Assembly (NCBI GenBank): GCA_026770705.1 | Contig: JANJGN010000018.1 | Location: forward strand, 40,920,001-40,984,000 | Length of the DNA: 64,000 bases | Direction: 5' to 3' | DNA from: Isurus oxyrinchus | Taxonomy: Eukaryota | Shown here: positions 35,342 to 62,395 of the stretch, piece by piece | How the letters are laid out: each line of letters opens with the position of its first letter | How positions within the stretch are numbered: position 1 is the stretch's first letter | Made by a program: the position numbers and the translations under genes | Notes under the pieces: generated by a model | The model's input: the letters and a program-made list of their open reading frames with translations, nothing else | Told to the model about the DNA's origin: nothing | Database searches by the model: none

Positions 35342-35758
35342 CTGGTGACTGGACTTGAAGAATTGTTGATCCAGAGCGAGCATGTCCTTGTATAACCCAT
35401 TCATTCTGGGGGCTCGAAACCCATTCCTCTACATTGCAAAAGTAAACACCGCTGTCACTTACTGCTGCCCTCTGTATTATCAACTTGTAGGTGTTACTGG
35501 AGGTCTTCACACTTTGGAATTTCATCTTTCTCTGTGGATCTGTAAGCAAATCTCCATAATACTGTAGTATATTATTTTGATCGGTTTTGAGAAGCGCTCT
35601 CTCCTTAGCATTTGGACTCTCTTTATTTTGGAAGGACCATGTAACTGAAAATTGTGATTGTGTCTGTGTCTGGTTGATAATATGGCATTCAAGTTCAACA
35701 ATAGCATCCTCACTGCTTGATATAGTTAAGTTATTGTTCCCGAGTTGTAGGTTTACAT
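35342..35758 (-). CDS. CD101: CD101-like Ig V-domain 7 exon (417 bp)
   Basis: DVNLQL...ELECHI...FSVTW...DSGVYFCNVEEWVSSP. Acceptor cttctgcag|, donor G|gtaac, phase 1-1. Confidence 0.88.
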
Positions 35759-36859: not shown

Positions 36860-38000
36860 GCATCCTAACCTTTAACAAAGCCTATTGAAAGTTTATACTC
36901 CATTATTGAGCCATGTATCCCACATTTGTTGTGCATTTTGAATTATTTCTCCACATTGTTATCTCTGCACTTTCAATGTTAAAACAGCAGTCCAGGTCAT
37001 TTTCAGTGTCTTTGTGCTACTTCTATTTGTTATCGTACATGTTTCTTAGTCTTTCTACCAATATGGAATATAGCTTGCATTTAGCAGCTTTAGTCTTCAT
37101 TTATAAATTGCCTGGACAATTGCATAGCAAGTCTAAACCCTTCTTCAAAACTGTGCTTTCATCCCTAAAATGCTCCATATTTTAATGTCATCTGAAAATG
37201 TTACACACAATTCTTTTTTGGTATTCTGGCTACTAAGGTCAATATGAAAACAACAAAGAGTCAAACATCAAACTCTGTTATAGTCCATCAGTACCATCCC
37301 CAACTGGTGCCACACTTCTGTCTGTGTTTCTTATTTTTTTATCCAATCTTTTAATCCAATTTCTTAAAGGTCCCACATTCTAGGACAGATTGGATTGTCT
37401 CTGAGATTCCCATAGATTTTCCTTTATTTAACATTCCTTCACGTGGAACTTTGTCAAAGGCTCTCTCAAAATCCAAATAAATCATATTGTAAAAGGTTTT
37501 ACAGTCTATTTGTAATGTTGCCAGGGAGGCTGAGGAGGATTGCCAAACAGAAACTCTCTTCTAAAGCTATGATGACACAAGTTATTACATTAGAACTGAC
37601 TTGGACATATACACCATCCCTTCATCGTCGTGTGCCAAAATATTGAAATCCCCTACAAAACACCATCATGAGTGTGCCACCACCATAAGACTGTAGCAAT
37701 TCATGAATTTGACCCACTACCACCTTGTCTAGGTAACTTGGGATAGACAATACATGCAGATTTGCCATTACATAAGACAAAATTGTATGGTATATATTCA
37801 TCAATCTACTTTTTAGTATTGCTTTCATTATTTAAATCTGCCCCAACATAAGTCTATTTGACCTGTAGTTACTGAAGTCAGATTTGTCTCCCTTCTTAAA
37901 TTATAGGCATTACATTTGCTCACTTCTAATCCTGTGGAACTTCTCTAGTACCCAGCAAATCTCTAAACATTCTCATCTGCAAGTTATTTCTCCCTTTGCA
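36860..38000 (-). mobile_element. Old CR1-type LINE RT fragment, with a nested HER1-tail fragment at ~37590-37770
   Basis: aatgtcatctgaaaa (FADD region), gaactttgtcaaaggctctctcaaaatcc (DF.KAFDKV), gacctgtagtt (NYRP). Confidence 0.6.
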
Positions 38001-39219
38001 GCTACCTAATGACTGACAGGTTTTTTAGCCTTCATTCTTTTTAATTTATTAAATATCGCTGCTTCACTCATTTCAAAATATTCTGTAATGTTGATTGTAC
38101 CACAGTTATCGAATGGCAAACAGTATTTTCTTGCTGGTGAGCACTTTGAGAAATAATAAAGTAATAAAACCATTTTCCTCTAACTTTCAATTATTCCACA
38201 CTTTCGTCTTTTAAGGATCTAGGCTTGGATTAATAAAAAAAAGAGCATAAGGCTGGCAAGCTGAGACTGCTGTCTGCCATCCCAAAGTTGCAATGACGCT
38301 CATCCACTTTCTTGAATCAGAGGTCATTATTTATACAGCTCAGACTCACTGTATCCATGCCAGCAAGTGGGAGTCCTCCACTCTACAACAGCAGAAGTCT
38401 GAATTAAGGGAGATTGAAGGGTCCAAAGGTAAGGTTACCATTTTCCTTTTAAACCTCAAACTGGACTGATACCTTCATTTACTGAGTGGTTGGAGCTTAA
38501 AGAGAGAGATAGGTATCCATTATGGGTTCTTTCATTCCAGAGGGACCTCAAGCAGGCGCTGTACCATGATTCGGAGTACAGTATACAACCATCCCATGCC
38601 TGTCGATGCTCGTGTCAACTTAGCAGTTTCCAGGCCCTGCTTTCTCACCATCATTTTCCACTATATAGCCTGATTTTGGATAGCATAGCAAAGGAAAATC
38701 CAAACAATAACTTCATCCTTAACCACTCTTTTTCCAATTATGATAATGAATAAGTTCTGTTCTAATTAATTCTGCTCCATTGCCCTTTTTGAACTCATGA
38801 AACCATTTAACTTGTTATTAATATTTTCTTTTATTTCTTCTAATTATCTCCCCTCGCTTCCCCCCACCCTTGTTGGTTCCATAATTTTAACTTCTTCCAT
38901 CCATACTGGAGACTGTTCAGTTTACACTTGAGGGATAATTTTCTCACCACTGGGACTCCATTTTGGAAATTCTGGTCCAAAGTTCATACACTGCACAGGC
39001 CACTGCCTGGCAACTTCCGTCAGGGATGCAAATGTGAAATATTGCTCCTTTAATATCGCTGCCAATCTTTTTCTCCATCACGTTACCAGTCATTCCACTC
39101 ACTATTTTTACTTCAGCATTTTTAGTTGCAGGAAAAGAAACAGTTTATACCATTGAATAAATAAATAGCCATTAGTTCTGGCCCTGCAATTTTGAGAGAT
39201 ATTTAAGAAACTTGTTTAC

Positions 39220-39636
39220 CTGCTGTATGCACCTGCAGAACCGTTATTGCCGACGTATTCTCTCCCACTTTATACCAGATGTTGTTGGGATCCAAAAGCC
39301 ACTCCTTTACATGACAATAGTAACTTCCACTGTCATTCACATCAGTTTTCTGTATAATCAGCTTGTACATATCATTAGAGGGCTTCTTAGCCTGGAATTT
39401 CATTTTCTTCTGAGAGTCAGTGAGCAATTCTCCATAGTACTGGATAACATTATTGCGATCGATGTTCAGAAGATTTTCCCCTTTCACATTTGGTCCCTGT
39501 GTCTTACTGAAGAGCCATGTGACTGAGAATTGAGAATCATTTTGAGTTTGAGCTAAAATTTTACATTCAAGTTCAGTGACATCTCGAATCCTTTTCTGTA
39601 TTGTTGTAACTTTCTTGGTGAGCTTCAAGAGACTTG
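39220..39636 (-). CDS. CD101: CD101-like Ig V-domain 6 exon (417 bp)
   Basis: ASLLKL...ELECKI...FSVTW...DSGSYYCHVKEWLLDP. Acceptor cttgtgtag|, donor G|gtaaac, phase 1-1. Confidence 0.88.
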
Positions 39637-40963
39637 CTACACAAGTAGAAAAGGCAGCATGTCAAAATAATTTCACAGCATTTCTTTACAACATTTAAGT
39701 TCAAGGTGAAGCATCACAGGGATCAGTCAATACCTAACTATTGCTTTAGTCGTATAAACTCATCCATGATTTAAAGAAACTCAATGCTACTAATGAGCAT
39801 GATGTACAGTTGAGCTCATGGCATTAATGATCTCAGCTCATGATACTCCTAATGTTTTTATTGTAAATTTACACCTTAAATTTTATCCAATTCTTTATAA
39901 AGCTGTTGTACTACTGTGCATCTGTATGCTGAGAGGGTACCCTATTCTTGCTTAGTTCCCTCATTACTCCATTAATGCCCATTTTATTTTCTGAAGGTAC
40001 AGATGAAGACAGAGTGACTACAACACAAAAATTGCAGATTTTTCAAAACTAATATGAACTGGCCATCGTTAATTCCTTTTGATTGTAATGTGTAACGTGG
40101 CAGAGTATTTACAGCACACCAATATTATTTTAAAATGCTGTTTCTCCTTAAAAACATCAAAACTGTACTTTAGCAATATGATAGCCTTGGGGTAAGAGAT
40201 TGAAATGTATGTACTTAATGACATAATACAGCCCCTTAAATAACTTATTTGACTAAAGTACCTCATACATCCATGTAACCTAATTTTCACAAGCATCTTT
40301 TCATAGTTGGTTACATGGATTTGTGCTAATGATTAAAATAGTCTTTTTTATCGGCTTTCTCTGAAATCTATTTATAACCCATTTTCTTATTTCATTGTAT
40401 TTAATTATAGTCAATTTATTTTGTTTTCCATAGATTCACATTTTGCTTTCTTCCTGTCAGTTTTTCTCCTTCCTATAAAGGTGCTGACTCCTGCTGGGAT
40501 ATGACTCAACAGATGCCTATGGCTTTCCAGTACCATGCTGAAGGCACCATTTTCATGTGTGATCCTAGAAAGTGAGTGTTTGCCAGCTACTTGACCATTG
40601 AGGACCCTGCAGCTGAGGATGATACTTCATTTCTCTGATGTCCACACACTTCTCCAATAGGAGCCACTGGATAACACCCACAAGCAGATACCCCCAGCAG
40701 ATTTTTTCCACTTCCCCATTCCAGGATCACTGAGCCCTTTTTCTCTTAATGCACAGGGGCTGAAATTAGAAGTGGGACTTTTTAAGTCCACATGGCTTAT
40801 TTCCACACCGCTGAGTGCACTTACCAACTGGAGCCATTATTTCAATTTCATTCTTTCCTTTTCAGAAGGCAGGTTAACATCTCTCATATTACACACAACA
40901 GCCCATCTTTCCACTTTAATTCATCATTGATCCTAGAAACACAAAAGTAACCTCTTACCTTAC

Positions 40964-41365
40964 CTGGGGGTCTAACCTTCACTTGCAAGATGTTTGATGT
41001 TGCACTGGCTTTCCTGACCCATTGGTTTAAATGATTCCTTCCCCATAATTCTGCAAAACATAGAAACTTCCCAGCTTCTAGCTTGCTGGCTCGAGATACA
41101 CTCAACCGGACAGTATTGGTCACAGTTTTCACTACAATCATTTTTCCTTTGAAGTTCTCCGTCTTGTCCCCCCACTTAATCGCAGTGTCATGGGTGAAAG
41201 TGACAAGCTGGTAGCTGCCATTAGAATTGGCTGGTTGAAATTTCCAGGATACAGATGCTGGCACATGGGTAAGACGTGAAGGGGTAATGACACACTGGAG
41301 TTCAAATGTACCATAGTATTGCACGGTGGGTGTCCGTGTCATTGCAATAATCCCAAAGCTACTTT
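40964..41365 (-). CDS. CD101: CD101-like Ig V-domain 5 exon (402 bp)
   Basis: ESSF...FELQCVI...VSWKFQP...EAGKFLCFAELW. Acceptor gtttacag|, donor G|gtaag, phase 1-1. Confidence 0.88.
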
Positions 41366-41510
41366 CTGTAAACATTAAAGGAAAAAATTAATGAATATTA
41401 CCAACACTAATGAGACTTTTCAGTGATGCCAATTCCCTTGGCAAATATTCTAGAAACAGTACAGGTCTGAGTTTGTTAGACCAGAATGATGCTCTTTTGA
41501 CCAATTCAAA

Positions 41511-42161
41511 GGGCAGGATTTTCCACGTGGTTTGCGGGCATGTGCCTGACAAGCTCGAGTGTGTAAGAGCACACAATGACATTAGGCAAGCACCCTGACA
41601 TCATCACGCACTTGCACGATATCTCAGTCTACGGATGTGCATGTGAGTCGGCAACCACCCACCGGCAAGTAAGAGACCTATTAATGCCATTCGTCAAATA
41701 ATTAACATGTATTTTTCACTGCCCGTCCAACATTACGGTTGGTGGGCAGGTGAATTGACCAGGCGGCCTTTGGATTTTTTAGGAAACCTCATCCACGGGC
41801 AGGATGAGATTTCTGACATTAATTCAAAGATAAAAATGCTTCCACAAAATTTTTTATTATGTTTCTGTTCATGTGAGTGAGTCTTACATGGGGACAATCT
41901 TTTCCCCTGATTTTCAAAACCTTACATTTTGATTTTAAAATTCTTCAGCTCCCTGAGGCAGCTCCCCTGTGCGTGCGCAAGCTTTTCTGCTTGCACTCCT
42001 CCCACCCCCACCTCGGCAGCGCTGAGCTTCTCAGCACCTCTCTCACACTGGCTGGCCGCTAATTGGCCAGCCAGCATGAAATTGAGGTCACGGGGCCGAT
42101 CGCAGGCGGCTGCTCCAGGGCCCGCCCACCATGCCTGCCCGACGACCCGAAAATTCTGTCC
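41511..42161. mobile_element. Non-autonomous Harbinger derivative (MITE-like) in a CD101 intron
   Basis: Termini GGGCAGGATTTT / AAAATTCTGTCC, with subterminal similarity to 6704-6990 and 10860-10998. AAA flanks both sides. Confidence 0.7.
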
Positions 42162-43244
42162 AAAGGCTTTTTGAACACCAAGACTACTGTTTTCTCCCTA
42201 GACAGATTTTCCACTTGTCTGAAGACTGAAGAGGCCCTTTAGGTAATTCTAAAACTTTGCTTTGTTGAGCCAGGAAAAGCAGGAATGATCCTCCTGGTTC
42301 CGCAAGGAAAACTGCAGCCTCCCCTTCCCTAGGCTCCAACATCCCTTCCCTCTACCAGATCATGCCATTGATCTATCGACGCCAGTTACCTGGGAGTCAG
42401 TGCGTGGCACTTATTTATGCCAGTGGCTGTTCTGCAACCTCTTTATGCCCATTTCAGGTCCAATAAGGCTTGGTGATCAAAATCACTGTAGCTTTCCACT
42501 GCTTCTGCCAGTTGGGAAATCAACTCACTTGAGTGGTTTCCTGTCAGAAACTCGCTCCAAGTTAAAATCAATTTGAGCTTTCATTTCATTTTTACAGATG
42601 TTGTCTCTGATTTATTGCATGTTTCCATCATTTTCTACTTATATTTCTCATTTTCAACATTTGAGGGCTTTTATTTCATTTGTTAACTTTAAATATATTT
42701 TCGCTACAAAGTAATATGGCGGCTCAATAATCTGGGGCTCTAGCACTCCACATCGCAGGGTGGTGAGATACTCCATGATTCCCCACATGGTAGATTTCCC
42801 AACTTAGCCATACAGAGCAGAAGAGACCACCATGGATTTTGGGCATTTTTTCAATGAAATGTGAGAAAATAAGAGAAGTATTCACCCCTGCCTAAGACTC
42901 TCATGCACCACTTCAGTAGTTGGTCACCAAGTCACCTACCCATTTACTCAATTGGGAATAATGCATGGAACAAAATGACCCAGAAAGGTGCTTATTTTTA
43001 TTAAAAAATTATAAATAGAAAAGTAGGCAGAAAAAAATTGTTCATTTTCTGCCCAAAATCCACTTCATTAAAAGTTGTCACCAAATGCATCAAAATTAGG
43101 GAAGGCAATGAAAGCCCCATTTGTGTCTTGACTGTGTATGATAGAATAAGGACCATCCCGTTGAAAACTTGATCTATGTCCATTCGAGAACCCTGCAATT
43201 GTTTAATTTGAAGTATCACAGATATTCAATACTGAAGTGCTTAC

Positions 43245-43649
43245 CAAGGGATTCGATAGTCACAGCTTTATTGTTGCTGACATACTCTCCGGCTAGCTGC
43301 CACCTTCCATTAGATCCTGCTTCCCATTCCATCACTTTGCAAGCATACATTCCCTGATCTGAAGTCAGGGCATTATAAATACTCAACATGAAGGAATCCG
43401 ATTTCACTCTTGCTATTCTGACATCACTGTTAATGACACGCTCATGGTAGGGCTGATAAGTAACCTGCATACCATCTTGGTCCATTCCAATGATATCACT
43501 GTTTTGATTCTGTTGGTTTATGAACTGCCAGGTAATAGAGAGCCGACCATAGCCTGCTGTTTCTGAATGAACGTCACAGGCAAACTGAAGAAAATCACCT
43601 TCCAACACCACAGTAGTATTACTGTTGATTACCACCTTAAGGTTGGTTT
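43245..43649 (-). CDS. CD101: CD101-like Ig V-domain 4 exon (405 bp)
   Basis: TNLKV...LQFACDV...LSITWQF...DQGMYACKVMEW. Acceptor atttcacag|, donor G|gtaag, phase 1-1. Confidence 0.88.
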
Positions 43650-45110
43650 CTGTGAAATGACAAAAAATTACTATAATGTGAGAAATACATGGAAGCGATG
43701 AATGTTTGGTGGTGAGAAAGCTGTGTTTAGTCAAACATGCTAGCTAACAGAATAAATAAGGTTTATGAACATCAACAGAACAACAACTTACATTTATGTA
43801 ACACATATAACATGGCAAAATTTTTCAAGGCACTTAACAAGAGCCTTGGATATTAATGCAGGATTTGTGTTGCAGTGACATACGTGCTTTAAATTAGTGA
43901 TTAAGCAAGCTATCTCCAATTGCGGAAGGATTAGGGAATCATTGTCAGAGCATATAAACGGGTCACTCAGTGTCTGGGAGGAACTGGGAGAGCCTGTGAC
44001 TTTGCTTGATGTTTTGGAAATAAACCTGTTTTAAAGTACAGGCTAGCTTCAGGTTCATTTTTCCTCAATGTGTGATTATTGGAATTAACATTGGGCTTCT
44101 TTAGACACTAAGCCACATAATGAGAAATCGGGAAAGATGACCAAAAGCTTGATTGAAGAGGTAGGTTTTAAGAAGTACTTTAAAAAAAGAGAGGAGATAG
44201 AGAGGCTTAGAGGTTTATGGAGGAAATTCCAGAGCTAGCTGAAAGCATAGCTCTAATAGTGGAGCTATTAAAATCAGGAATTCACGGCAGGCTTGAATTG
44301 GAGAAGCACAGAAATCTCAAAGGCTTGTAGGGCTGGAAAAAGTGACAGATGAGAAGTGGTGAGGCCATGGAGAAATTTGAAAACAAGAATTAGAATTCTA
44401 AAAGTACAGTGTTGTCAAATGTGGAGCCAATGAAGGACAGCAAGCATAGGGTGATGGGTGAATGAGATATCATAGGGTTATAGTACAATACAGCCCTTTG
44501 TGCAAGTGCCAGCTCTCTGCTAGTCCCATACCACCCCCATAGCCCAGCAATTACTTTCTCTTCCTGTGCTTATTCAATTCCCTTTTGAAATCTAAAATTG
44601 AATCTTCCTCCACCACACACTCTGGCAGTGTATTCTAGATCCTAACCATTCACTGTGTAAAAAAAATTTTCTTCATGTCGCTGTAACTTCAGTGTCCTCT
44701 GGTTCTTGACCCTTCTGCCACCAGTGGGAATAGCTCCACCCTATCTATTCTGTTTGGACTGCTGGGTAATTGAAAGCTGAATGCTGCTGTGCTTGGGGTT
44801 AGGAACTGATCTTGGGCAGCAGCATAAATGAGAGCTAGTGAATCTTACAGTGTGTTTTATGTCCAGTCTGATTTTCTTTTCCGTGGACCTTATTGGACAA
44901 TAAAAGTCATGCTGAATGTAAATCTGGTTGCCCATTCATTATCACCATCTTGCTCCTGCCCAAGATGAGCATCTATCCCTTTGTGTCTGAGATTTATAAA
45001 GTTCATCCAGGAGCTGACCAGATATCCTGTCAGAATTAAGATATAATACTGCTCCTAATATCTTAATCACCATCAAAGATAGGAATAAAGTTAATCTGAA
45101 TGTTTCTTAC

Positions 45111-45491
45111 GTGGTTGTTGAACAGTGACTGCAACTTCCTTGGATTTGTTGGTAGAGAGTGCTCCAGTTGAACCTTTCTCAGTCTCTTCCACTTGACAGT
45201 GATATGTACCATCATCCTGCATTTGAATCTGATAAATTTTCAGAACATAGTCCCTGTCACTTTTCTTACTGACCATCACCTTTCCCAGCTGTGCTCTCAT
45301 TTTATATTCATCATGAAAGGATGGTACTGCATTTGGTCCAATACGAACTGTTTCATTTTTGTTCAAGAACCAGGCAATAGAGAAGAAGCGTTCTGCGAAA
45401 TTCTGAGCTTCAACTGTGCAGACTATTTCCAGTGAGCCTCCTACAGCAATATTGACTGCAGTGGCTTTAATCAGAGCATGAAACTGATTAC
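45111..45491 (-). CDS. CD101: CD101-like Ig V-domain 3 exon (381 bp)
   Basis: GNQF...LEIVCTVEA...FSIAWF...DDGTYHCQVEE. Acceptor cactgcag|, donor C|gtaag, phase 1-1. Confidence 0.88.
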
Positions 45492-47673
45492 CTGCAGTGT
45501 GAAACAAAATGAATATTATCACTGTGCAAGTCAGTATATGGGGCCAAATCAGAAGCAAAGTGAGCGAATTTGCCAAAGTTTTAGCCTGATGAAAGACCAC
45601 CATTTCAATGTCGGCTTTGATGTAGTGTAGAGAGCACAAGGCGATGTACAAATTGGATGGAAATATGGCTTCCTATGCAGTTAATTTACTTTAGTGGCGA
45701 GAATGCTGGAGATAGTTTCTGTACAAGTTTCCTGATTGTCCAGGGACGTGCTCCTAACATACTCACTTGCTTTCTTTTTAAAAGATGATCTTTTAAATTT
45801 CATCGTTTCTAGTTCATTACTAAATATAAATGAGTCCAAATGATCTTTGCTATTTGACTAGTGATCCTGAGGGCACAGAGCAGCATACTTTTTTATGATC
45901 AGAGGAAGAGAATGGAATGTGGAGGGAGATTAAGGGATCAAAATGAGATGGAAGCAAATGGATGTAAAATTCAAACATTATAAATTTCAAAATTCAGAGA
46001 CTGTCACCAGCTCAGTATTGGCAGATATCCAAAGCGTGTCAACAAGTGCAATTATTACACTTGCCTTTAAGTGGTGTACCCTTGGCCATTAAGGCTACCT
46101 TTAAATTGTAAGACACTCTCTTTGGTGCAAACTGGGGAGTGCCATTTGAAGCTGAAATTTATCGCATCAGCAATTGAAGTCTGCTGAAGGTTAAGAGCAA
46201 TGATTCACTCTGTGCATTAACATAATACTGGCGTTCATCAAAAGGTCAGTGATTCAAACTTCACAAAAGACCTTCAGTTTATACATCTGACTGTTTGCGC
46301 TATAATTAACCTGTCTAGTACATTATTGTCTGTTATGATCTCCTGTCACTACCACTAAGACTCAGCCATAGCAAACCATTCAATGCTTGTCATCCAAAGT
46401 TTGGCTGAGAGCAGGGTAAAATAGGAAAGTTTATAAATATAACTATTTATGGTGTCTGCAATCTGTCCGCACAAGATCACACAATATAAATGTACACATG
46501 TAAATCCTTACTTATGGCCATTTTTTGCAGTATTTGAACAATCAAAGGCTAAAATTTGACTTGGTTCAGCTGAGCTGTGGAATCCAAATGTGCTCAGCTC
46601 TTTGATCTAGCTGAGTGTCTAATTTCAGATAGGAGGGACTGTTTGATCTAGGTGCTAGTGCATATGACCAATGCCTAGGGTTCCCAGTTGGTTTAATCTG
46701 AAAAATGGGCACACGTTGGATGAAACTATTTGAAATTTGGGCTAGAGAACTATCACACGGGTTCTGTAAAGACCAACTGGCAGTAATGAGATCAGTGAAG
46801 CCCAGTCCCAAGACTCCCTGGTGTTGATCCCAATCCACCTTTCAAAACTAGACAAGATAATCCATTCAAGCTGGAATACTATGCTTCTCTGATTGCAGTC
46901 TGAACATCCTTGGGAGAATTAAGCACCCCTGTCCTTAGACATGGAGGCTTTACGGCAGGTTTTCTGGAGTTGGCAGCCACCCCACGAAGGATTCTACTGT
47001 TATAAACCATCATGCAAGGCAGCATATAGGTGAGTGGCGGACCCCTTTATCCAAGCCATTGTCTGCAACAAACTGCTTGGTATAATTGTCAATGAATGCA
47101 CCAACTCCTTATGCTCAGGAAGAAAGCATCTTTTTAAATAATTGAGTGGTTCAGAAGTGGTATTGCAAAGTACATCATGTGCCATAATGCTGAAAGCATT
47201 TAAGATACTGTGAAGGGTATATTAATTATAATTATCAGCGCTGCTTTGTATGCTGAATTAATGGAAGGTTGACAATGGGTTCTCCTACCATGGTTAATAA
47301 ACTTCTTTAGGCATTACCACCAGGTAGGTGGCATGTTGCTCACGGGATTGTAACTTGTGAGCTCTGTTATGTTGTGGCTTTTCACTCAAGATATTTTTCC
47401 CAGTTTTAGCATTGCAGACTTCTACGAATGAGCCCTTGTGTCTTTAAGTCAGAAATACACTTTTACTTGCTCAACTGTTAGGTATCTTGTAACAAACCCA
47501 AGGAAAGCACAGAAAATCCTCAATACTATATTTTGGCTCAGTAGTTATATCTCGTACTTCATGTGATGTTTCGCAATTTTGGGATATAGCAAAACAACCA
47601 AACCACTGGACCATGGCAATAGTGTCCAAAAGATTTAACAAATAGGTTTATTGAACAGCAGAAATGATACGCT

Positions 47674-48104
47674 GCTTGTTTCTACTGGAGTTTAGAAGAG
47701 TGAGGGGTAATTTGATTGAAGTATACAAGATCCTGAACGGCCTTGACAAGGCAGATGTCAAACAGATGTTTCCTCTTGTGGGTGAGTCCAGAACTGGGGG
47801 GGGGGGGGTGTGCTGTTTTAAAATTAGGGGTCACCCTTTTAGGACAGAGATGAGGAGAAATTTTTCTCTGAGTGTTGTGCAACTTTGGAACTCTGTCTCA
47901 GAAGGTGCTGGGTGCGGGGTCATTGAATATTTTTAAGGCAGAAGTAGATAGATTCTGGTTAGGCAAGGGAATCAAAGGTTATCGGGGGCAGATGGCAATA
48001 TGGAAATCGAAACACAAGATGATCAGCCATGATCTTATTGAATGGCGGGGCTAGCTTGAGGGGCCGAATGGTCTACTCCTGTTCCTATTTCTTATGTTCT
48101 TATG
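47674..48104 (+). mobile_element. CR1 LINE 3' end with (TTCTTATG)2 tail
   Basis: LFLLEFRRVRGNLIEVYKILNGLD; terminal octamer repeat. Confidence 0.85.
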
Positions 48105-49660
48105 CAGAGTAATTATCGTTATCACCCTGAATATTAATCTTTACAATATGCTTGCTTTTTCTCTTCATGGAGCATCTCCCTATCATCTGACGCCTTCAGA
48201 TGGATCACAAAATTTGAACAAAACCAACTCAGAAATAACTTTTACAAATTTAGCTGGGCCAAAGAAAATTTAAATATTTGTCTCAAACTCAGCAAAAGGT
48301 TGCCAAACAAAATATATGTAAACAAATTGTAAAAGGTGCTTGTATTTGAACTGAATATCTTATCCCTTCTCTCGGACATCATATGCAGACTTGACGGGGG
48401 ATTTTTCAGATTGGATGGAATCCCACCACAAAGTCACTTGGGGGGAATTACCCTCAGACTGTGCTAACCCCTAATTTTTTGCAATCGGCCTTATCTAAAT
48501 AATTCAGGCAAATTTCCAGTTGATTTCCATCAGCAACAGGGATCCAGCATCTGAGAGAAGGTGGAAAACAGTGAAGGCAGGCCTACTTCCTTTGAGGCGG
48601 CCAAAGACAAAATTTTTGCAGTTGCTGGGCATTGGATATAATCAATTACCTAGCGGCCTCAGGAGAATTTAAATTTTAAGTCCCCCGCCCCTTGTCACAG
48701 CAGCACTATCCACAAGACCATTTTGCTTTGTTTATTCTTTTATTGACAAAAAAACTCTCATGATGTTTTGCCACAATTAATATGCTGTTTGAATAGGCAC
48801 AAATATATTTGGATGGACATATTCAATATCTACCAGTAAATAATATTGGAACTAGGATCAGACCATCAGGAGCTAGTGGAACAATTTACAACCGGCCTGT
48901 CCCTGATGTACCCAAAATCATCAGGTACACAAACTGAAAGATCAACTTAAATTCTGAATATCTGTCCACAGTGTGGGTATCAAAACAAGACGCAACATTG
49001 AAATGATACATTGGTGACAAAAATGTCCCATTTCTGCCATCCCCATCTCATGCCTTTATTGTGGTGTTCACTGGGGCGCAGTGTCATTCTCTTCCAGGCA
49101 GAACCAGCAGCTGCATATAACCCCATCTAAGTTGCTGGGCATCTTCTGTGCTGTTACGTTCCTTCCAGCTGCTGGGAACCTCTGAAGAAACTGGCTACCT
49201 TGACAAGCTAACAAAAGCAAGGACTGCTCCTTCAAGCTGCCGCAGCCCTTCAATCCTGTAACAGCACTTGATTTCTTGAATTGCAAGTCCTAATCGGGCA
49301 TTTGCAATGCCAAAAATTCACCTGCATTATGCTGATGAGGCTGCCCACAGAATTACAATCAAGGTTCTGTTCTCACATGACCTGACTTCGGGTCAAGCTT
49401 TCACCAGATTGCAGAATCTTTGTCCTTGTGTATAGATTTTCTTTTCTAGTGATAAATCTTGCATGAGTGTATGTAGTGTAAATACAGATAGTGAACATGC
49501 AATTTCCAGCTAAATAATCTCTCTCATCATCACCGCAAAATGTGTATTATAAATTCAGCCATGTGCAACACTTGAGTTTCTTACCACAATGGATGTAACA
49601 GTCACATTATGAAAATGTAGCTGTTTAAAGGAGATATGTTTATTTACTTATGAGTCTTAC

Positions 49661-50068
49661 CTATGCTTTTAACATTCACTGTGGTCTTTTCAGTACGTTT
49701 ATTAGTCAGGCCATACCAGGATTTGTCTAAATCTTGGATCCACTCTGTGCCTTCACAATAAAACTCTCCCTGGTCTGACATCTGCAGTTTGGAGATGGTG
49801 AGTTTGAATGAAGTCGCTCCAATCTTATCAAGTCGTACATCTCCTGATGCCTGTCTCTGCGAATATGACTGTCCAGGATGTAGGATGAAATCTTGTGTTA
49901 GAGAGATGACCTGGAGATTCTGATTCGCTTTCTGTAGATACCATGTGACAGCCACGTGTGTGTGCTGCTCTGTGCGTTTGGATACTTCACAGGTCAGTTC
50001 CAAAGTATCACCTTCGACTCTATCCAGGGTCTGGGGTACTGATATTGCACTGAGTGTGTCGGGAATAA
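49661..50068 (-). CDS. CD101: CD101-like Ig V-domain 2 exon (408 bp), carries the EWI motif
   Basis: VIPDTL...LELTCEVSKRTEQHTHVAVTW...DQGEFYCEGTEWIQD. Acceptor ttcttacag|, donor G|gtaag, phase 1-1. Confidence 0.9.
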
Positions 50069-50799
50069 CTGTAAGAACATATGTTTTGAGCATGTTTTGC
50101 AGAATGTACAATGGATAATTGTGCTTGAATACAAGAATGCAATACTTCCACAATCTAATTTGTCTAAAAAGGTACCTTAACTCAATACAGATCAAACATT
50201 CAGTTCTTCCACAGTATGACATTTTGAAAAACAATATGGAGAAACAAAACTCTAAAACTCCATGGGATCAGTTGCTTTGGTGAATTACAGCCTCTCTAGT
50301 CATTCATTATTTTGACTTCTGCTCAAATCCATCTGAGATAGAGGTGATCAGAGATTTTAAGCAGAACAGTTGTACATGATAGCTTAATATATTAACATAC
50401 TCTTCTTCTTGGGTTTCTCCAATGGCTCAATGGATTAGAATACACTATTGTATGGTATTGTGCTGTATACACCCTGGATGGCCATAGCCACTGATGTCCT
50501 CAGCAACCTCTGACTAGAATGGGCATAGCCAGAATGGGATCCTACTCCTTTTTTTTATTTCACAGGATGTTGGCAATTGCCCTTGAGTAGGTGGTGGTGA
50601 GCTGCCTATCCTGAGACCTATCGAGTGACCCTGCTGCAAAGTGTATGGATGTTGTGTAAGAATTAGCTTGTGCTTCAATGCACCTGATGCTTGCATAGTC
50701 TGCCAGCACTGCTGACCTAACTGATTCACTACTGGCCTTTAGGGAAGGAAACCTGACTTCCTAAATCTGTCTTGCCTATATGTGACTATAGGTGGCAAG

Positions 50800-51478
50800 A
50801 TTAGAGAACTGGGGTTGTTCTCCTTAGATCAGCAAAGATTAAAGAGAGATATTTGATGGAAGCATTCAAAACCCTAAATGGGGTTTTGATAGACTAAATT
50901 AGGAGAAACTACTTTCAGTGGCAGAAGGTCCAGGGACCAGAGGACAGAAATTTCAGGTAATTGGCAAAAGAACCAGAGGTGATGTGAAGAAACTTTTTTT
51001 TAAAAAAAAACAGAACAAGCAGTTATGATCTGGAATTAACTGCTTGAAAGGTGGTGGAAGCAGATTCAATAATAACTAACTATCTAAAGGGAATTGGAGA
51101 AATACTTGATAAGAAAAAAAATTGCAGGGCTCTAGGAAAAGAGCAGGGGTTGGGCTTAATTGGAAAACTCTTTGAAAGAAAAAACAAAAACAGAAATACC
51201 TGGAAAAACTCAGCAGGTCTGGCAGCATCGGCGGAGAAGAGTACAGTTGACATTTCGAGTCCTCATGACCCTTCAACAGAACTAAGGGTCATGAAGTCTC
51301 GAAACATCAACTGTACTCTTCTCCGCCGATGCTGCCAGACCTGCTGAGTTTTTCCAGGTGTTTCTGTTTCTGTTTTTGTTTTGGATTTCCAGCATTCGCA
51401 GTTTTTTTGTTTTTAACTCTTTGAAAGAGCCTGGAGCCAAATAGCTGCCTTCTGTATTGTGTCATTTTATGATTCTAT
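50800..51478 (+). mobile_element. CR1 LINE 3' end, host of the 51180-51414 palindrome
   Basis: gaactggggttgttctccttag, accagaggacag, gtggtggaagcagattcaata, ending tatgattctat. Confidence 0.75.
51180..51414. mobile_element. Non-autonomous Penelope terminal fold-back (palindromic) insertion with 14-bp TSD
   Basis: About 93-bp inverted arms around the 10-nt loop CAACAGAACT. Tail at 51383-51414. AACTCTTTGAAAGA at both 51166-51179 and 51415-51428. Confidence 0.9.
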
Positions 51479-52155
51479 AAACTGAACCTTGTGATCTCTG
51501 GAACTCAGTACCACAGTGGGCATTACCATCACTCACAAGGCCAAGGAGTGTCAAAAATCAAAAAGCATTTTGAATCTTACAAACAATGATATGTTCTTGT
51601 ACTATATGAACAGGCTGCTCATCTGATTTGGCTAATAGTAGTATGTTTCCCATTCTATTCACTCTTCCTAGAAAATCTCAAAGAAAAGTGCCTACCTATA
51701 AATAAGCAAACTGCATGTACAGGAAACACATATGGTGCATTACATCATGTTTAATAGGATTTAAAAACAAACAAATACGTTTAACAATGGTGGGTTTCTA
51801 CATGTTGGTAAATTTTATAATGTGAGCTAAGAACTCATTAGGACTTTATACATGTGCATGTCTTGTTTATAATCAGATTTCATGATGGTGTATTGTTCTA
51901 ATTGATCAAGATGTATGTATAATTGTGCATTTCTTTTTATATAGTAGGATTCATAAGGCTGTGATGAAATTTGGATAGGATTGTCAGTACCTTTTTGCTA
52001 CATTTTTATTAAATTGCATTTATACACAGCTGAATGTTTAATTGGTTACAATATTCATTCTGCGTACTTTCAATAAGGATGAAGCTGATAATGGTCAGGT
52101 ATATTAAAGTCCTGAAAACAAAAATAGAACAGGTGAGAACATTTGAATAACCCAC

Positions 52156-52533
52156 CTGTCAAGTTCATCTTGCCATTGTAGGATCCCCAGTATATACTGG
52201 CTGTGTTGGGGGTGTAACACTCATACTCTCCTTCATCACTTTTCTGCAGTTTTGTAATGTGTAACATCACCGAGCTTGCTGTTACCCTCTCTATGTAAAT
52301 CTCATTATTCCGCACTCTCTCTCCATAGATGGCGTAAAAGAAATCAGAAGTAACCGTGCTGATAATCTGGATTTTCAGTGTAGGCTCAGCTGGACGAAAG
52401 ATGGACCACTCAAAGTTCTGTTCCGAAGACTCCTTTTCCCCACTCACAGTACACTGAATTGTTATATGGTGTCCCTCAGCCCGGACTAGGGGTCCTTCTT
52501 GTAATTTCACTTCTCTTTGAGCAGTGCATGAAT
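52156..52533 (-). CDS. CD101: EWI-family IgSF receptor (CD101/IGSF2-like), Ig V-domain 1 exon (378 bp, phase 1-1)
   Basis: Encodes DSCTAQREVKLQEGPLVRAEGHHITIQC...EQNFEW...DEGEYECYTPNT..YWGSYNGKMNLT, the characteristic first domain of CD101/IGSF3. Acceptor ...gatatag| at 52535-52534 and donor G|gtggg at 52155. The symbol is inferred from the 7-domain count and the tail motif; IGSF3-like is not excluded. Confidence 0.88.
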
Positions 52534-53249
52534 CTATATCAAGATATAAATACAAGAGGTAGTTCAGGTCATTTTTCTCTTGAAGTGAAAACAAAAAATT
52601 CTGAAAGAACAAATCTGCATTTTATCCTGAAGAACAGGAAAAATTTAAATCTTGTATTCAACTTGGGATGTAATACAGAAACAAGAATGTACCTCCTAAA
52701 TGTCTGATGGAGTTCTGTTACAAACACTGGTGAATGATCAATAAAGCAATTGTGTTACAGTTAGACACAAAACATTTGCCTCACGTGCAATAATATTGGT
52801 AAACACATCCAAAAAAGTAACCTTAAGCTCCTGGTGAAGAAATAGTGGCTTCTTATGTATTTAAAGTGATTGGCCAAAGAACTTGAGATGAATAGGAAAA
52901 CCTATTTATGAATGATAGGGTGGAATACAGATAACAGTGACCTTCAAGAAGAACTTGGATAAATACTTGGAGAAAAGAAAACTGCAGGGATATGGGGAAT
53001 GAGTGGGGAAGCGGGGCTAACTGAATTGCTCATCAAAAGAGCTGGTCAAATGGTCTCCTTCTATCAATAACGTTTTATGAAACTATTTATGTGCCATTTT
53101 AGCAAAATTTTCAGCTCATTTGAAAAAAGTGTGATAACTGTTAAAATAGTTCATACAGAAATTTGACATGAATGCATTGACATGAATGGATAGGCAAAAA
53201 ATAGCACACAGAGAAACTTAGGGCATAACAATATTGAGAAGTCACCAAA

Positions 53250-56200
53250 GACCTCCATACCCCCTCATCATCTCCCGCTATGAGAAAGAGGTCTTGGAGC
53301 TTGAGAGGTGCCATGCACCTTAGTTGAGTGGTTGCGGTGAGGCTGGAGTGTCAGACGAAGATAAGAGTGCAGTGCACTGAGGCGAAAAGTTTGGCTTGTG
53401 CACCCATATTAGTGTAGTCTCTTCATCGATGAGACCCCTGAACCTGGAGTCCCCAGTGATCATTGAAAGACGAGGGCACCATGATGCAAATCTCCATTGT
53501 CTCACCAAGGTGCCTGGCATGCGCAGTGACAAGTGTGACGACTTTAACTAATGACTTCCTTCTTCTCCCTTTTAGGTTCACCTGCAGGCATTTGCCCTCC
53601 AGACCCTGAAGGGTCAACCCTGACACCGGAGGACCACCATGCTCCCCATGCACCTGCATCAAACCCACTCTCTGAAGCAGGCACCAGCACAGATACCAGC
53701 ACCTTGGTGGGCATTAGTTTGGGGCAAGTATCTCAGTGCACATTGGTGAGGGCACTTCATACTCACTTGAGGTGCAGACGGAGGCAGAAAGCGCCCAGGC
53801 GCTAGCAGTTGGAGGACTGCTGGGGATCAGGACTGAAGGCAGATGATGAGCCTCTGGAGTCGTTCATTAGGCAGCGGGATGTGCAGGAGGATCTGGCAGA
53901 GATCCAAGAGGGTATGTGTGCCATGTTCTCCATTGTGGAGGAGTCCCTGCTGAGCGCAAACTGGGCATTGACCCTCATGGCTGAGCAGAGACTGTCATGG
54001 AGAGGCAGCTCCAGGAACAGAATCAGGGGTTCCTGGGGTTGTGCTCGGACCTGCAAGCCCTCACACAGGCACTGATCTCAACTGGTCAGTGTCCGTGTAT
54101 GAGATAGATGGGGCACCTAGTATCCCAGCTAGGTGCCCATCCATCAATGGTGAGCAGGGAGGTTCAGAGCGACCTCATGTTGGAGCACAAACTGCTTATC
54201 GTCTCTGGATGTTCCTCTCAGGGTGCTCAGGATGATTGGGCAGCAGCTCCTCCACCCCTCTGCCAGTGACAGTGGCATCAGATGAGGCTGCGATGACTGG
54301 GCAGATGCCAGCTTTGGCACCGGCCTCTCCCTCCCAGGCAGGGCCAGCATGGGCTCCACTGGCCAGAGGATGACTGCCAAGGTCATCATGACCAACAGGA
54401 CAACAGAGTCAGCAGGCTATCTCCAATGCCAGCAAGGGGGGGAGCACCTACGTGTAGCACGCGTAAACATAAGTTTAAAGCACTTTAAGCACCAGAGGGA
54501 CTGGTCACATGTGAATTTTTGTTCCCCCATTGTTTTATTTCCATGGTGTAACTACCAACACCTTTTTTTTCTGTTCAAAATGACGTGAGTTCCAACATAA
54601 AAGTATATTTGTTTTTGTTATCGGCCTGAGTATGCTTCATTTATTTTGTAGGTGCAGTGTAGGCCAATATGTAATGTGAACATGAGCGGCTTGAACCTTT
54701 ATTACACAGGCACTGAGTGTATCCTGGGGACCAAGGAGAGGGTCATTTCTGTGATCCAAGATGAAGGCGGCAGCCCTGGTATGAGGTGATAGTTCTTATT
54801 GGACAACCTGGATGAGGGAGCTAAAAACAAAAAACTGCGGATGCTGGAAATCCAAAACAAAAACAGAATTACCTGGAAAAACTCAGCAGGTCTGGCAGCA
54901 TCGTTCTGTCGAAGGGTCATGAGGACTCAAAACGTCAACTCTTTTCTTCTCCGCCGATGCTGCCAGACCTGCTGAGTTTTTTCTGGATGAAGGAGCGTTG
55001 GATCAAGGCATCCCTCCCCCTCTGGAGGTTACAGAAGTCTGCCTCCACGTTCTCAGCTTTCTCCTTACCATGCTCCTCTTCTGACTCACTACTGGGTTCA
55101 TCAAGTATGGCCTGTGGAGCTGCCTCAAGATCCTCTTCCTCCAGTAGGTACCCCCTTGCCAGTGCCAGATTGTGGAGAGCACAGCATGTAACCACTATCA
55201 GTGATGCCTGCCCTGGGCGGGGCATATTGTGTTGCTCCCCCCGAACAGTCCAGGCATCGGAAGTGCATCTTGAGAAGACCGATGGTTCTCTCTATTACAG
55301 CCCTTGTGGAGGTGTGGCTCCTGTTGTACTGCTGTTTCGCCTCTATTCTTGGGTGGTGGAGAGGCATCATGAGCCACCTTTTCAACGGATAGCCTTCATC
55401 ACCCATAAGCCATCCATCCAGTCAGGCTGGAGCACTGAACAGCCTCGGCACCTGGGAGTGAGCATCTGAGGATGTATGTATCATGGGAACAGGACAGACT
55501 TGCAGAATCTGCATCCTGTGGTCACACACTATCTGGATTGTTCATGGAATGGAATCCCTTCCTGTTGACGAAGGCACTCGGCTCACCCACTGGCACCTTG
55601 ATGGCCACATGTGTGCACTCCATTGCATGGATGCGGAGAACTCAGCAATCGCTGCAAAGCCTTTGGCTTGCCCAGACTGGCTGGCCTCATCTGTACGGAA
55701 CTGAAGGAAAGTCAATACCTGCCTGAACAGAGCATCAGTCGCCAGCTTGACACAACTATGGACAGCTGCTTGGGAGACTCCACACAAATCCCCTACTGAG
55801 CCCTGGAAAGAGCTGGAGGCATAGAAGTTGAGGGCCACTGTGACCTTCAGAGCCACTGGCATGGGATGTCCACCCATACAGTCGGGAACTGATCTCAGGT
55901 CCAATCATATGACAAATGGAGCTCACTGTCTCCCTTGAGAGACGGAGCCTCCTTCAGCATTGCACCTCAGACATATCGAGGCAGTTGCACCACTGCCTGC
56001 AAACCCTGGCAGTGGGATAGTGGCGTCTTCTGCGGTCCCTTCTGCCTTGGGCTTCCTGTTGGCCCTGTGCCCCTTGTGCCTGCACCTCTCCTCCCACAGG
56101 TCGCTCTCCTGGAAGCTGCATAGGGACTACCTGGCCTCCTCTCCTTTCTGCCCCTCTCTTCCTCCTCAGAGGAGGTTCCTCCAGCAGAGACCACAGTCCT

Positions 56201-56693: not shown

Positions 56694-57153
56694 TTAAAGT
56701 TTCTCACCATCATGTGACAGGGAGGACAACTTGTTTTGTGGCTAGACAACACTGCTCGGAGACACCGGGTCTAAATTGGATAGCCCCCGACATCGGGTGC
56801 GTGGATCGTGATGCACAAGTTCAATGTGTATGCAAACTTCGTGCTGTCTGCTAATTATAAGGATTGTGATGTGCTGCCCAGCACTAAACACACATCTGAG
56901 TGGCTGCATTCTTCAGCGAGAAGCCCAACAGGGGCTTGCACCCAGCAAGGGCAGCACCAGATAAGGTACACCCATGCAACATGAAGCCAACCTACATTTC
57001 TTAAAGGGGAGAGGCATTAGGGGTGCAGCAGGATTAAGGAGGTTTGTAAACCAGGAAGAATCTACAAAAATGGCACTTTAGGCCAGGCAGAGAATCCCAG
57101 GGTTCTCAAATTTGCACTGGGGGCCTTGGTGTGGGAGGTGCACAGGAGGAGAT

Positions 57154-58137
57154 AGAGCTCCTCAGGGTAGTGCCCTCGACCCAACCATCTGCAGCTACTT
57201 CATCAAAGACTTTCCTTCCATCATTAGGTCAGAAGTGGGGATGTTCGCTGTTGAGTGCACAATGTTCAGCACCATTTGCGACTCCTCAGATACTGAAGCA
57301 GCCCATGCCCAAATGCAGCAAGACCTGGACAATATCCAAGCTTGGGCTGACAAGTGGCAAGTAACATTTGCGCCACACAAGTGCCAGGCAATGACCATCT
57401 CCAACAAGAGAGAATCTAACTATCGCCCCTTGATGTTCAATGGCATTACCATCGCCAAATCCCCCACTATCAATACCCTAGGGATTACCATTGACCAGAA
57501 ACTGAACTGGACTAGTCATATAAATACTGTGGCTACAAAAGCAGGTCAGAGGCTAGAAATCCTGCAGCGGTAACTCATCTCCTGACTCCCTAAAGCCTGT
57601 CCACCATCTACAAGGCACAAGTCAGGAGTGTGATGGAATATTCCCCACTTGAGTATGTGTGCAGCTCCCACAACACTCAAGGAGCTTGACACTGCCCAGG
57701 ACAAAGCAGCCCGCTTAATTGGCACCACATCCACAAACATTCGCTCCCTCCACCACCAACGTACAGTAGCAGCAGTGTGTACCATCTACAAGATGCACTG
57801 CAGGAATTCACCAAAGCTCCTTAGAACGCACTTCTCAAACCCACAACCACTACCACCTAGAAGGACAGAGGGCAGCAGATAGATGGGATCACCACCACCT
57901 GGTAGTTCCCCTCCAAGCTACTCACCATCCTGACTTGGAAATATATCGCCGTTCCTTCACTGTCACTGGGTCAAAATCCTAGAGCTCCCTCAGTAACAGC
58001 ACTGTGATTGTACCTACACTACATGGACTGCAGCGGTTCAAGAAGGCAGCTCACCACTGCCTTCTCAAGGGCAACTAGGGATGGGCAATAAATGTTGGCG
58101 CAGACAGCGATGCCCACAACCCACAAATTAATAAAAA
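57154..58137 (+). mobile_element. CR1-clade LINE 3' part (HER1-like)
   Basis: RT motifs PQGSALDP, MFA(DD), DLDNIQAWADKWQVTFAPHKC, LGITIDQKLNW. The 3' end CTCAAGGGCAACTAGGGATGGGCAATAAATG..AATAAAAA is shared with the SINE. Confidence 0.85.
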
Positions 58138-59373: not shown

Positions 59374-59712
59374 ACATTGTTTTCCATTGTGTAAACAGCA
59401 GAACGATTGACTATGTCTGTACAGTCCTGTTTAAACCAAGGAATGGAATAAACCAAAGGTAAAGAGGTGCTAAGCACTGAGTTACTCAGTGGAATGCTAT
59501 CTGTGCCTGTGATAGTGTGATCTGAGTCATCATAAAAGAGGGTGACATCAGAGAGTGGGCACTGCAGTCAGGAGGAGGGGGACAGAGACTGGTCATCTCC
59601 AGATCCGGGCCTCCAATCAAAACTGGTAACGACTCCCTGATACTGGAGAATTGCCTGTAACATTCTCTTGACTTGAAGTTTGATCCATCCTGGACAATAT
59701 AGCTGGGTTTCT

Positions 59713-62381
59713 AAAACAAAAACAGAATTACCTGGAAAAACTCAGCAGGTCTGGCAGCATCGGCGGAGAAGAAAAGAGTTGACGTTTCGAGTCCTCATGA
59801 CCCTTCGACAGAACTTGATTTCGAGTCCAGGAAAGAGTTGAAATATAAGCTGGTTTAAGGTGTGTGTGTGGTGGGGGGAGGAGAGAGAGAGAGAGACAGA
59901 GGTGCTTGTGTAGACAAACAAGCAGTGATAGAAGCAGATCATCAAAAGATGTCAGTAACAATGGTACAAAAGAACACATAGGTGTTAAAGTTAAAGTTGG
60001 TGATATTATCTAAACGAATGTGCTAATTAAGAATGGATGGTAGGGCACTCAAGGTACAGCTCTAGTGGGGGTGGGGGGAGCATAAAAGATTTTAAAATAT
60101 TTAAAAATAATGGAAATAGGTGGGAAAAGAAAAATCTATAAAATTTATAGGGAAAAAAAAAGAAAAGAAAAAGGGGGAAAAAAGGGGGGAAACAGAAAGG
60201 GGGTGGGGATGGGGGAGGGAGCTCACGACCTAAAGTTATTGAATTCAATATTCAGACCGGAAGGCTGTAAGGTGCCTAGTCGGAAGATGAGGTGTTGTTC
60301 CTCCAGTTTGCGTTGGGCTTCACTGGAACAATGCAGTAAGCCAAGGACAGACATGTGGGCAAGAGAGCAGGGTGGAGTGTTAAAATGGCAAGCCACAGGG
60401 AGGTTTGGGTCATTCTTGCGGACAGACCGCAGGTGTTCTGCAAAGCGGTCGCCCAGTTTACGTTTGGTCTCTCCAATGTAGAGGAGACCACATTGGGAGC
60501 AACGAATGCAGTAGACTAAGTTGGGGGAAATGCTTCTTCCTCGAACAGAGGCCCGAACAATCCCCATCCACCACTACTCTCCTCCGTCTGGCTGAACTTG
60601 TTCTCACGTTGAACAATTTCTCCTTCAACTCCTCTCACTTTCTCCAAATAAAAGGTGTGGCTATGGGTACCCGCATGGGCCCCAGCTATGCCTGTCTCTT
60701 TATGGGATATGTGGAACATTCCTTGTTGCAGTCCTACCCCGGCCCCCTTCCACAACTTTTTCTCCGGTACATCGATGATTACTTCGGTGCTGCTTCATGC
60801 TCTCGTCGGGACTTGGAAAAATTTATTAATTTTGCTTCCAATCTCCACCCCTCCATCATTTTCACGTGGTCCATCTCTGACACTTCCCTTCCCTTCCTTG
60901 ACCTCTCTGTCTCAATCTCTGGTGATAGACTGTCCACCAATATCCACTACAAACCCACCGACTCCCACAGCTACCTCGACTACAGCTCCTCACACCCCGC
61001 TTCCTGTAAGGACTCCATCCCATTCTCCCAGTTCCTTCGCCTTCGTCGCATCTGTTCCGATGATGCTACCTTCAAAAACGGTTCCTCTGACATGTCCTCC
61101 TTCTTCCTTAACCGAGGTTTTCCACCCACGGTCGTTGACAGGGCCCTCAACCGTGTCCGGCCCATCTCCCACGCATCCGCCCTCACGCCTTCTCCTCCCT
61201 CCCAGAAACATGATAGGGTCCCCCTTGTCCTCACTTATCACCCCACCAGCCTCCGCATTCAAAGGATCATCCTCCGCCATTTCCGCCAACTCCAGCATGA
61301 TGCCACCACCAAACACATCTTCCCTTCACCCCCCTTATCGGCATTCCGTAGGGATCGCTCCCTCCGGGACACCCTGGTCCACTCCTCCATCACCCCCTAC
61401 TCCTCAACCCCCTCCTATGGCACCACCCCATGCCCACGCAAAAGATGTAACACCTGCCCCTTCACTTCCTCTCTCCTCACCGTCCAAGGGCCCAAACACT
61501 CCTTTCAAGTGAAGCAGCATTTCACTTGCATTTCCCCCAACTTAGTCTACTGCATTCGTTGCTCCCAATGTGGTCTCCTCTACATTGGAGAGACCAAACG
61601 TAAACTGGGCGACCGCTTTGCAGAACACCTGCGGTCTGTCCGCAAGAATGACCCAAACCTCCCTGTGGCTTGCCATTTTAACACTCCACCCTGCTCTCTT
61701 GCCCACATGTCTGTCCTTGGCTTACTGCATTGTTCCAGTGAAGCCCAACGCAAACTGGAGGAACAACACCTCATCTTCCGACTAGGCACCTTACAGCCTT
61801 CCGGTCTGAATATTGAATTCAATAACTTTAGGTCGTGAGCTCCCTCCCCCATCCCCACCCCCTTTCTGTTTCCCCCCTTTTTTCCCCCTTTTTCTTTTCT
61901 TTTTTTTTCCCTATAAATTTTATAGATTTTTCTTTTCCCACCTATTTCCATTATTTTTAAATATTTTAAAATCTTTTATGCTCCCCCCACCCCCACTAGA
62001 GCTGTACCTTGAGTGCCCTACCATCCATTCTTAATTAGCACATTCGTTTAGATAATATCATCAACTTTAACTTTAACACCTATGTGTTCTTTTGTACCAT
62101 TGTTACTGACATCTTTTGATGATCTGCTTCTATCACTGCTTGTTTGTCTACACAAGCACCTCTGTCTCTCTCTCTCTCTCCTCCCCCCCCCACACACACG
62201 CCTTAAACCAGCTTATATTTCAACTCTTTCCTGGACTCGAAATCAAGTTCTGTCGAAGGGTCATGAGGACTCGAAACGTCAACTCTTTTCTTCTCCGCCG
62301 ATGCTGCCAGACCTGCTGAGTTTTTCCAGGTAATTCTGTTTTTGTTTTGGATTTCCAGCATCCGCAGTTTTCTTTGTTTTC
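59713..62381 (+). mobile_element. Young Penelope-like element, 5'-truncated, with an inverted copy of its 3' end (fold-back) and 14-bp TSD
   Basis: Open RT-C-half + GIY-YIG frame from 60534 to 61838 (QIKGVAMG, RYIDD, VYCIRC..YIGET, R..EH, GLN). 59713-60533 is the reverse complement of 61528-62348. ATAGCTGGGTTTCT is present at both 59699-59712 and 62382-62395. Confidence 0.95.
62246..62284 (+). ncRNA. Minimal type-I hammerhead-ribozyme-like motif in the Penelope terminal repeat (mirror copy 59777-59815 on the minus strand)
   Basis: AGUU-CUGUCGA-A-GGGUC-AUGAG-GACUC-GAA-ACGU-C-AACU. Stem I is AGUU/AACU, stem II is GGGUC/GACUC, and a palindromic ACGU replaces stem III. Minimal hammerheads are an established feature of PLE termini; the core here has U at position 6. 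Confidence 0.65.
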
Positions 62382-62395
62382 ATAGCTGGGTTTCT

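Follow-up and report, generated by a model that had tools for sequence, protein, structure and literature searches.

A U6 core variant of the minimal hammerhead motif is widespread and long-lived in a Penelope-like retrotransposon of Isurus oxyrinchus

Introduction

The minimal hammerhead ribozymes of Penelope-like elements (PLEs) cleave weakly, as dimers (PMC4209133, PMC6765202), and the purpose of PLE hammerheads is unsettled (PMC8557442, PMC4209133, PMC11167929). In a stretch of 64,000 nucleotides of Isurus oxyrinchus DNA (assembly GCA_026770705.1, contig JANJGN010000018.1, positions 40,920,001 to 40,984,000; hereafter the window), a PLE insertion carries a motif of this architecture with U in place of the consensus A at core position 6. 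The original prediction regarded this change as fixed in a young family, and read the motif either as an attenuated ribozyme or as a non-catalytic signal. The locus raises the question of how common and how old U6 is, and of what the altered motif is kept for.

Results

The motif and its copies in the window

The stems, the core, the palindromic ACGU and the cut site were read in the window letters as the original prediction had described them (Table 1), with the addition of the unpaired A62257, which it had omitted. All five window cores that it listed were found (CUGUCGA at 62250(+), 59811(-) and 54906(+), CUGUUGA at 51279(-) and CUGAAGA at 12788(-)), but those at 62250 and 59811 belong to the two arms, 99% identical, of a single insertion and are not independent.

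The U6 motif has the consensus G12 A13 A14, A15.1-U16.1 and H17, and departs from the consensus core C3 U4 G5 A6 N7 G8 A9 at position 6, which is U in 77,050 of 78,939 exact genomic copies. The assignment to PLE minimal hammerheads was borne out by helices I and II, the extra base after A9, the G10.1-C11.1 pair, the palindromic 15-16 region and the position in the pseudo-LTR (pLTR); an unpaired base between 9 and 10.1 is a known trait of these hammerheads (PMC4209133). An Rfam scan up to E 5 returned 7 matches, hammerhead not among them, and the folding energy of the motif was no better than that of shuffles (z 0.06), so that the motif is identified by its core sequence, by its A6 relatives and by where it lies in the element, not by folding energy. 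By these features, a minimal type-I hammerhead motif in the pLTR of a Penelope-like retrotransposon with RT and GIY-YIG was confirmed; it is of the PLE minimal hammerhead architecture and off the consensus core at one site.

Table 1. Features of the PLE insertion and of the hammerhead copies in the window
Feature	Position	Strand	Evidence or remark
Single PLE insertion, 5'-truncated, inverted	59713..62381	.	arms 99% complementary, self-BLAST
Inverted arm of the insertion	59713-60533	-	
Forward arm of the insertion	about 60532-62381	+	
Truncated ORF: C-terminal RT, CxxxxCxxC linker, GIY-YIG endonuclease	60531..61838	+	
Left target-site duplication, 14 bp	59699..59712	+	
Right target-site duplication, 14 bp	62382..62395	+	
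Conserved 20-base block with TATATTT, putative TATA element	62200..62221	+	
Second GGACTCGAAA, gained stepwise in youngest subfamilies	62233..62242	+	
Minimal type-I hammerhead motif, U6 core	62246..62284	+	window sequence, alignment of copies
Stem I, AGUU/AACU	62246-49/62281-84	+	
Core CUGUCGA, U6 = 62253	62250-56	+	non-canonical base
Unpaired A between A9 and G10.1	62257	+	
Stem II, GGGUC/GACUC	62258-62/62268-72	+	one G.U pair
GAA-ACGU-C: GAA 62273-75, palindromic ACGU 62276-79, C17 62280	62273-80	+	predicted cut after C62280
Downstream segment and tail	62285..62381	+	3' ends cluster at ~62343-62357 and 62381-62392
Same motif, identical, in inverted arm of same insertion	59777..59815	-	self-BLAST
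Short U6 copy, G12 decayed to A	54903..54940	+	fused to inverted tail piece
Short U6 copy (CUGUUGA), older subfamily, C15.2 to T	51245..51283	-	head to head with copy at 51284(+)
Old A6 copy (CUGAAGA), begins at C3	12754..12788	-	without stem I 5' strand; stem II mismatch

The host element

The motif lies 410 bases past the stop of the truncated RT and GIY-YIG frame. Outside the window, the genome also contains tandem 3.35-kb units that share 99.5% identity; one has a 926-codon open frame and the second a frameshift close to its start. This identity and the open frame uphold the recent mobility claimed for the family. Pfam analysis of a full-length relative gave RVT_1 at E 7e-8 and GIY-YIG at E 9e-4, the latter just missing the cut-off (20.0 against 22.6 bits). 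The features of EN+ PLEs are present, namely a single ORF with RT and C-terminal GIY-YIG, a tandem or inverted arrangement, pLTRs and an optional tail of 30-40 bases. The ORF contains the linker CPRKRCNTC, which has the Zn-finger-like CX2-5CxxC form that marks the Neptune/Nematis clade between RT and EN (PMC8557442), and going by this cysteine linker the element fits the Neptune/Nematis type. A canonical core elsewhere in the unit that might supply the 5' half was sought, but both strands of the 3,353-base unit lacked CTGANGA. A further copy of this PLE family, older and broken, with 92% identity, occupies window 15-2002 (-) and continues past the window start.

U6 is the family consensus and is older than the young family

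The genomic copies above were counted with an exact 31-mer in which positions 6 and 7 were free; A6 accounted for 138 of them and C or G for 1,751, these exact-match counts being biased towards young copies. Since the reversed-pattern control gave 0 matches, the U6 pattern is not due to chance. With a relaxed pattern, the wider family gave 70 U6, 15 A6 and 2 other copies in 1.46 Mb unselected for the motif (seven 200-kb blocks, of which one was chosen for its tandem array and one lies in the same copy-rich region). The genome counts give U6 as the family consensus and reject an A6 consensus, the outcome that the original prediction had named as contrary to it.

The claim that the young family fixed U6 did not hold, since U6 is already present in an older subfamily: the U6 pattern with the older stem II had 6,897 exact matches, with the old loop and a GUU site in most of the first 100 listed, and older A6 subfamilies had 8,765 matches. 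In total 228 copies were collected, and 118 of them were sorted into eight groups. The subfamily series runs from A6/GAGUC/GUU through the same with U6 and U6/GGGUC/GUC to U6C7. Divergence from the own majority was 4.6% for the oldest U6 group (17 of 22 long copies) and 1.3% for the youngest (12 of 13), and the two majorities differed at 28 of 188 3' UTR sites (15% raw).

In a tree built from the flanks only, with the motif excluded (45 of the 118 grouped copies, chosen by sufficient upstream homology), the young subfamilies were placed inside the old U6 group on a branch of 0.24 (100/100) and the A6 side branch stood apart (100/99), while the oldest U6 and oldest A6 copies were intermixed. 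The young-family A6 copies sampled nested within the U6 group, L033 and L034 beside the U6 arm of the same locus. Going by these groups and trees, A6U predates the young family: its origin lies in a subfamily about 5% diverged, from which several successors inherited it. We showed by the same comparisons that the main active lineage carried it through several subfamilies. The U6 motif is a real core variant, genome-wide and long-lived; the ribozyme and the element class to which it belongs are both known.

Later changes in the motif

Between the oldest and youngest U6 majorities five changes were made, one at N7, two in loop II, one at H17 (U to C) and one at pair 10.2 (A-U to G.U), the last of which leaves stem II paired. 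GUC is the preferred hammerhead cut triplet. Four of the five fell in the 7 free sites (N7, loop II and H17) of 38 (P 0.002 for 4 or more), and none in the 23 sites of the core, extra A, stem I and stem III (P 0.024 at the 3' UTR rate of 28/188); the 12 invariant core sites alone gave P 0.13, and five changes are all that the constraint test is built on. The whole motif changed at the pace of the 3' UTR (5/39 versus 28/188), which was counted against our best explanation. The patterns gathering old copies fix the core, and a subfamily with an altered core could stay hidden from them; 140 BLAST hits unselected for the core, inspected by eye, had no shared core change, and their departures were scattered or of CpG type. 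The A6 side branch acquired the same changes at H17 and at the 10.2 pair of stem II, separately from the U6 line.

Within the lineage, stem changes in a 10-copy alignment were one-sided only, and no two-sided (covarying) stem change was seen there within the U6 lineage. Two-sided differences in stem II were found between a sister family and the lineage, at 10.1-11.1 and 10.2-11.2. The sister family had 275 matches, with A6 in 88 of the first 100 listed and with A-U and G-C as the first two stem II pairs; its hammerhead carries A10.1-U11.1 where G-C is usual, and its loop II has 3 bases. The TATA-like 20-mer and the tail are likewise conserved across subfamilies, and since such other blocks are conserved too, a promoter or protein-binding constraint could mimic the conservation picture of the motif.

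Copy ends and the start of the RNA

Among 56 young copies of the unselected sample, 15 extend past -45 of C3. The 5' ends of the remaining 41 lay at -9 to -1 of C3 in 19 and at +27 to +35, the bin of the cut site, in 1; not all of the 19 are independent, as 14 are fused to an inverted copy. Genome-wide, raw starts at the cut site numbered 298 of 91,158, and of the 30 that were inspected, 19 were joins at an inversion, 9 had an internal deletion or a mutation and 2 were plain truncations. A control position four bases upstream of the cut had 120 starts in the raw count, and the corrected genome-wide share of copies starting at the cut was about 0.4%. Neither genome-wide nor in the unselected sample did the copy 5' ends peak at the cut site, and inserted copies mostly continue through it. 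The A6 side branch had 20 starts at the cut in 1,672, with about 7 true joins (~0.7%) and 1 at the control; with so few joins, and a control that requires an intact CpG, we claim no difference between A6 and U6. Since the 5' ends lie at the edge of stem I rather than at the cut site, the templates appear to be mostly uncut, in the U6 family and the A6 relative alike, and because the end pattern is the same in both, copy ends do not separate A6 from U6.

The 3' ends of copies cluster at about +93 to +107 and +131 to +142, which are likely two RT start sites around the tail by analogy with PMC11167929. That the motif itself is the RT priming signal, as had been proposed, finds no support in the place of these ends in the tail, 60-110 bases downstream of the cut. 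Many of the short copies in the unselected sample are paired head to head, with one arm stopping ahead of the tail and its partner beyond it; such pairs would fit a dimeric RT that primes on each target strand.

In each of the seven majorities with upstream data, TATATTT precedes stem I by 28-32 bases, and this spacing suggests a transcription start at stem I. Alternatives for the stem I edge are an RT stop at structure or, in the older subfamilies, a splice acceptor, for which Drosophila Penelope offers a precedent (PMC4209133). The internal promoter of Drosophila Penelope is TATA-less (PMC2377424), so a TATA ahead of stem I is not a known rule. Contigs of three organisms from public runs span the motif; the variant table contained neither T>A at position 6 nor the common C>T at position 7, and so is unsuited to the per-species base, RNA ends and splicing.

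In the spacer before stem I (window 62221-62245, L087:2180-2209), a second GGACTCGAAA and an TCAACTCTTT echo of the post-cut sequence were acquired stepwise, and one intermediate had a short hairpin covering the 5' strand of stem I. A possible 5' UTR intron was noted at L087:2289-2380, with a donor-like CAG/GTAATT in the tail, missing from the oldest subfamily, and CAAG just before the first ATG; the contigs contained no spliced joint.

Predicted folding

Opening the core of the isolated 39-base motif was predicted to cost 2.1 kcal/mol in the youngest form, 3.0-3.1 in U6U7 and 2.1-4.1 in the A6U7 forms, which were predicted to pair the core with the cut site; U7C lowered the cost from 3.1 to 2.1 kcal/mol. 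When flanks were included, the hammerhead fold was not the predicted favourite in any subfamily, and stem I had a probability of <0.1. A UCGA/UCGA helix through which U6C7 would lock G8 and G12 was not favoured by the folding model. These energies were used as weak hints for the readings below.

Discussion

The motif resembles the metazoan PLE minimal hammerheads described by Cervera and De la Pena 2014 (PMC4209133) in being type I with a short helix I, an unpaired base between 9 and 10.1, G10.1-C11.1 and a palindromic 15.2-16.2, in lying in the pLTR, and in occurring mostly as single short copies, some head to head. It differs from them at position 6, U here and A there, the core variant reported in that paper being U3-A8. 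The natural A6C hammerhead of phage Bcep176 is likewise changed at position 6 with the other core letters intact (PMC3088659, PMC7151607), but it has C at one phage locus, against U in about 77,000 copies of a long-lived retroelement lineage here; its activity is low but detectable, slow in Mg2+ and rescued by Mn2+. In pairwise mutagenesis, CUGA mutants had low activity and second changes did not rescue them (PMC9901934). By analogy with published mutagenesis, changes at position 6 are expected to leave little activity, and A6U may be worse than A6C. A literature search in the running text of papers found no natural U6 or A6U PLE hammerhead and no measured A6U rate.

The green anole Poseidon PLE (PAc) has a protein-assisted hammerhead, and in vitro its insertion can proceed without hammerhead cleavage (PMC11167929). 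Our element shares with it the tandem units, a tail between two RT start sites, a hammerhead upstream of the tail and a mainly uncut template. It differs in the cysteine linker of Neptune/Nematis type, in U6 and in the place of the hammerhead, which overlaps the ORF start in PAc (PMC11167929) and lies about 170 bases before the first ATG here. Among Xenopus retrozyme dimers, 8 of 9 did not cleave (10.64898/2026.07.22.740005).

We tentatively favour, at a little short of an even chance, a hammerhead ribozyme that is strongly slowed yet still constrained. A6U would slow self-cleavage strongly while the remaining core stays under selection. The element RNA likely begins at or near stem I; reverse transcription likely initiates downstream, in the tail, on uncut RNA, which would yield short hammerhead-plus-tail copies or longer ones from the 3' pLTR. 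Residual cleavage would need two motifs pairing through ACGU, probably together with the protein of the element, and would be rare or late; cleavage is probably not needed for each jump. Between the attenuated ribozyme and the non-catalytic signal of the original prediction, the later changes lean to the still-constrained hammerhead.

It is possible, if doubtful, that catalysis is gone and the sequence is kept as a non-catalytic signal, either as a protein-bound fold or as one component of an internal promoter where transcription begins. The low and unrescuable activity of CUGA changes (PMC9901934), the insertion without cleavage in vitro (PMC11167929) and the proliferation of hammerhead-less Naiads (PMC8557442) would agree with this, as would the peak of 5' ends just before C3 (19 of 41 truncated copies, against 1 near the cut), the TATATTT 28-32 bases upstream and the second GGACTCGAAA that arose upstream. 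Yet the changed positions are exactly those that are free in hammerhead chemistry, and H17 remained H, going to C twice. In the anole PLE, moreover, the minimal template can start inside the hammerhead, at +20 of the ORF with the cut at +26 (PMC11167929), and RT use there thus does not depend on an intact fold. The concentration of changes in free sites (P 0.002) also speaks against a decaying vestige, under no selection since A6U and with its core intact through few changes and luck, which we hold to be decidedly unlikely. Over the same interval the flanks moved by 15% raw, about 0.24-0.3 by ML, and the 140 hits unselected for the core, read by eye, were without a shared core change; a vestige would be in line with only five changes in 39 sites, with the P of 0.13 for the 12 invariant sites and with the missing folding signal.

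Very improbable, in our judgement, is full tolerance of U6 (through the extra A9a, the dimer or help from the protein), with cutting at least as good as in the A6 ancestor by removal of a UGAUG/CGUCA misfold. A6 forms with GUC are indeed predicted to mispair the core and the cut site (4.1-5.9 kcal/mol versus 2.1 for U6C7), but the predicted energy gaps are small and ignore tertiary structure, and the position-6 changes in the literature are all slow in Mg2+ (PMC7151607, PMC3088659, PMC9901934). That A6U was itself selected seems unlikely to us; cleavage would then have come to depend on the protein of the element, on dimerization or on a metal (Mn2+, for example), or would have been retired with the fold kept. 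With the element RNA beginning at the hammerhead, a cut would cost it the cap and leave shorter templates, and the U6 line would have taken over while the A6 sister line stopped.

At the branch point, matched A6 and U6 subfamilies differ at one core base, so that their cleavage and transposition are directly comparable. If any activity is found, U6 would join the short list of natural core variants. A descriptor built on a consensus core of the CUGANGA style misses the dominant hammerhead-like family of such a genome.

Neighbourhood of the insertion

Seven exon-sized frames at window 35331-52621 (-), six of them with V-set matches, belong to a multi-Ig membrane-protein gene, which we take to resemble the IGSF3/IGSF8/EWI type. 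The PLE insertion lies 5' of the first multi-Ig exon and is intronic or upstream. Two diverged remnants of Harbinger-type DNA transposons (DDE_Tnp_4) lie in opposite orientation at window 7115-9025 and 54109-56161 and are 76-80% alike; the short PLE copy at 54823-54986 is within the latter. LINE RT fragments (RVT_1) were found in opposite orientation at window 57082-58074 and 29535-30411. At window 23057-23427, a tRNA-like head is followed by a repeat common to 33049 and 58064, likely a tRNA-derived SINE.
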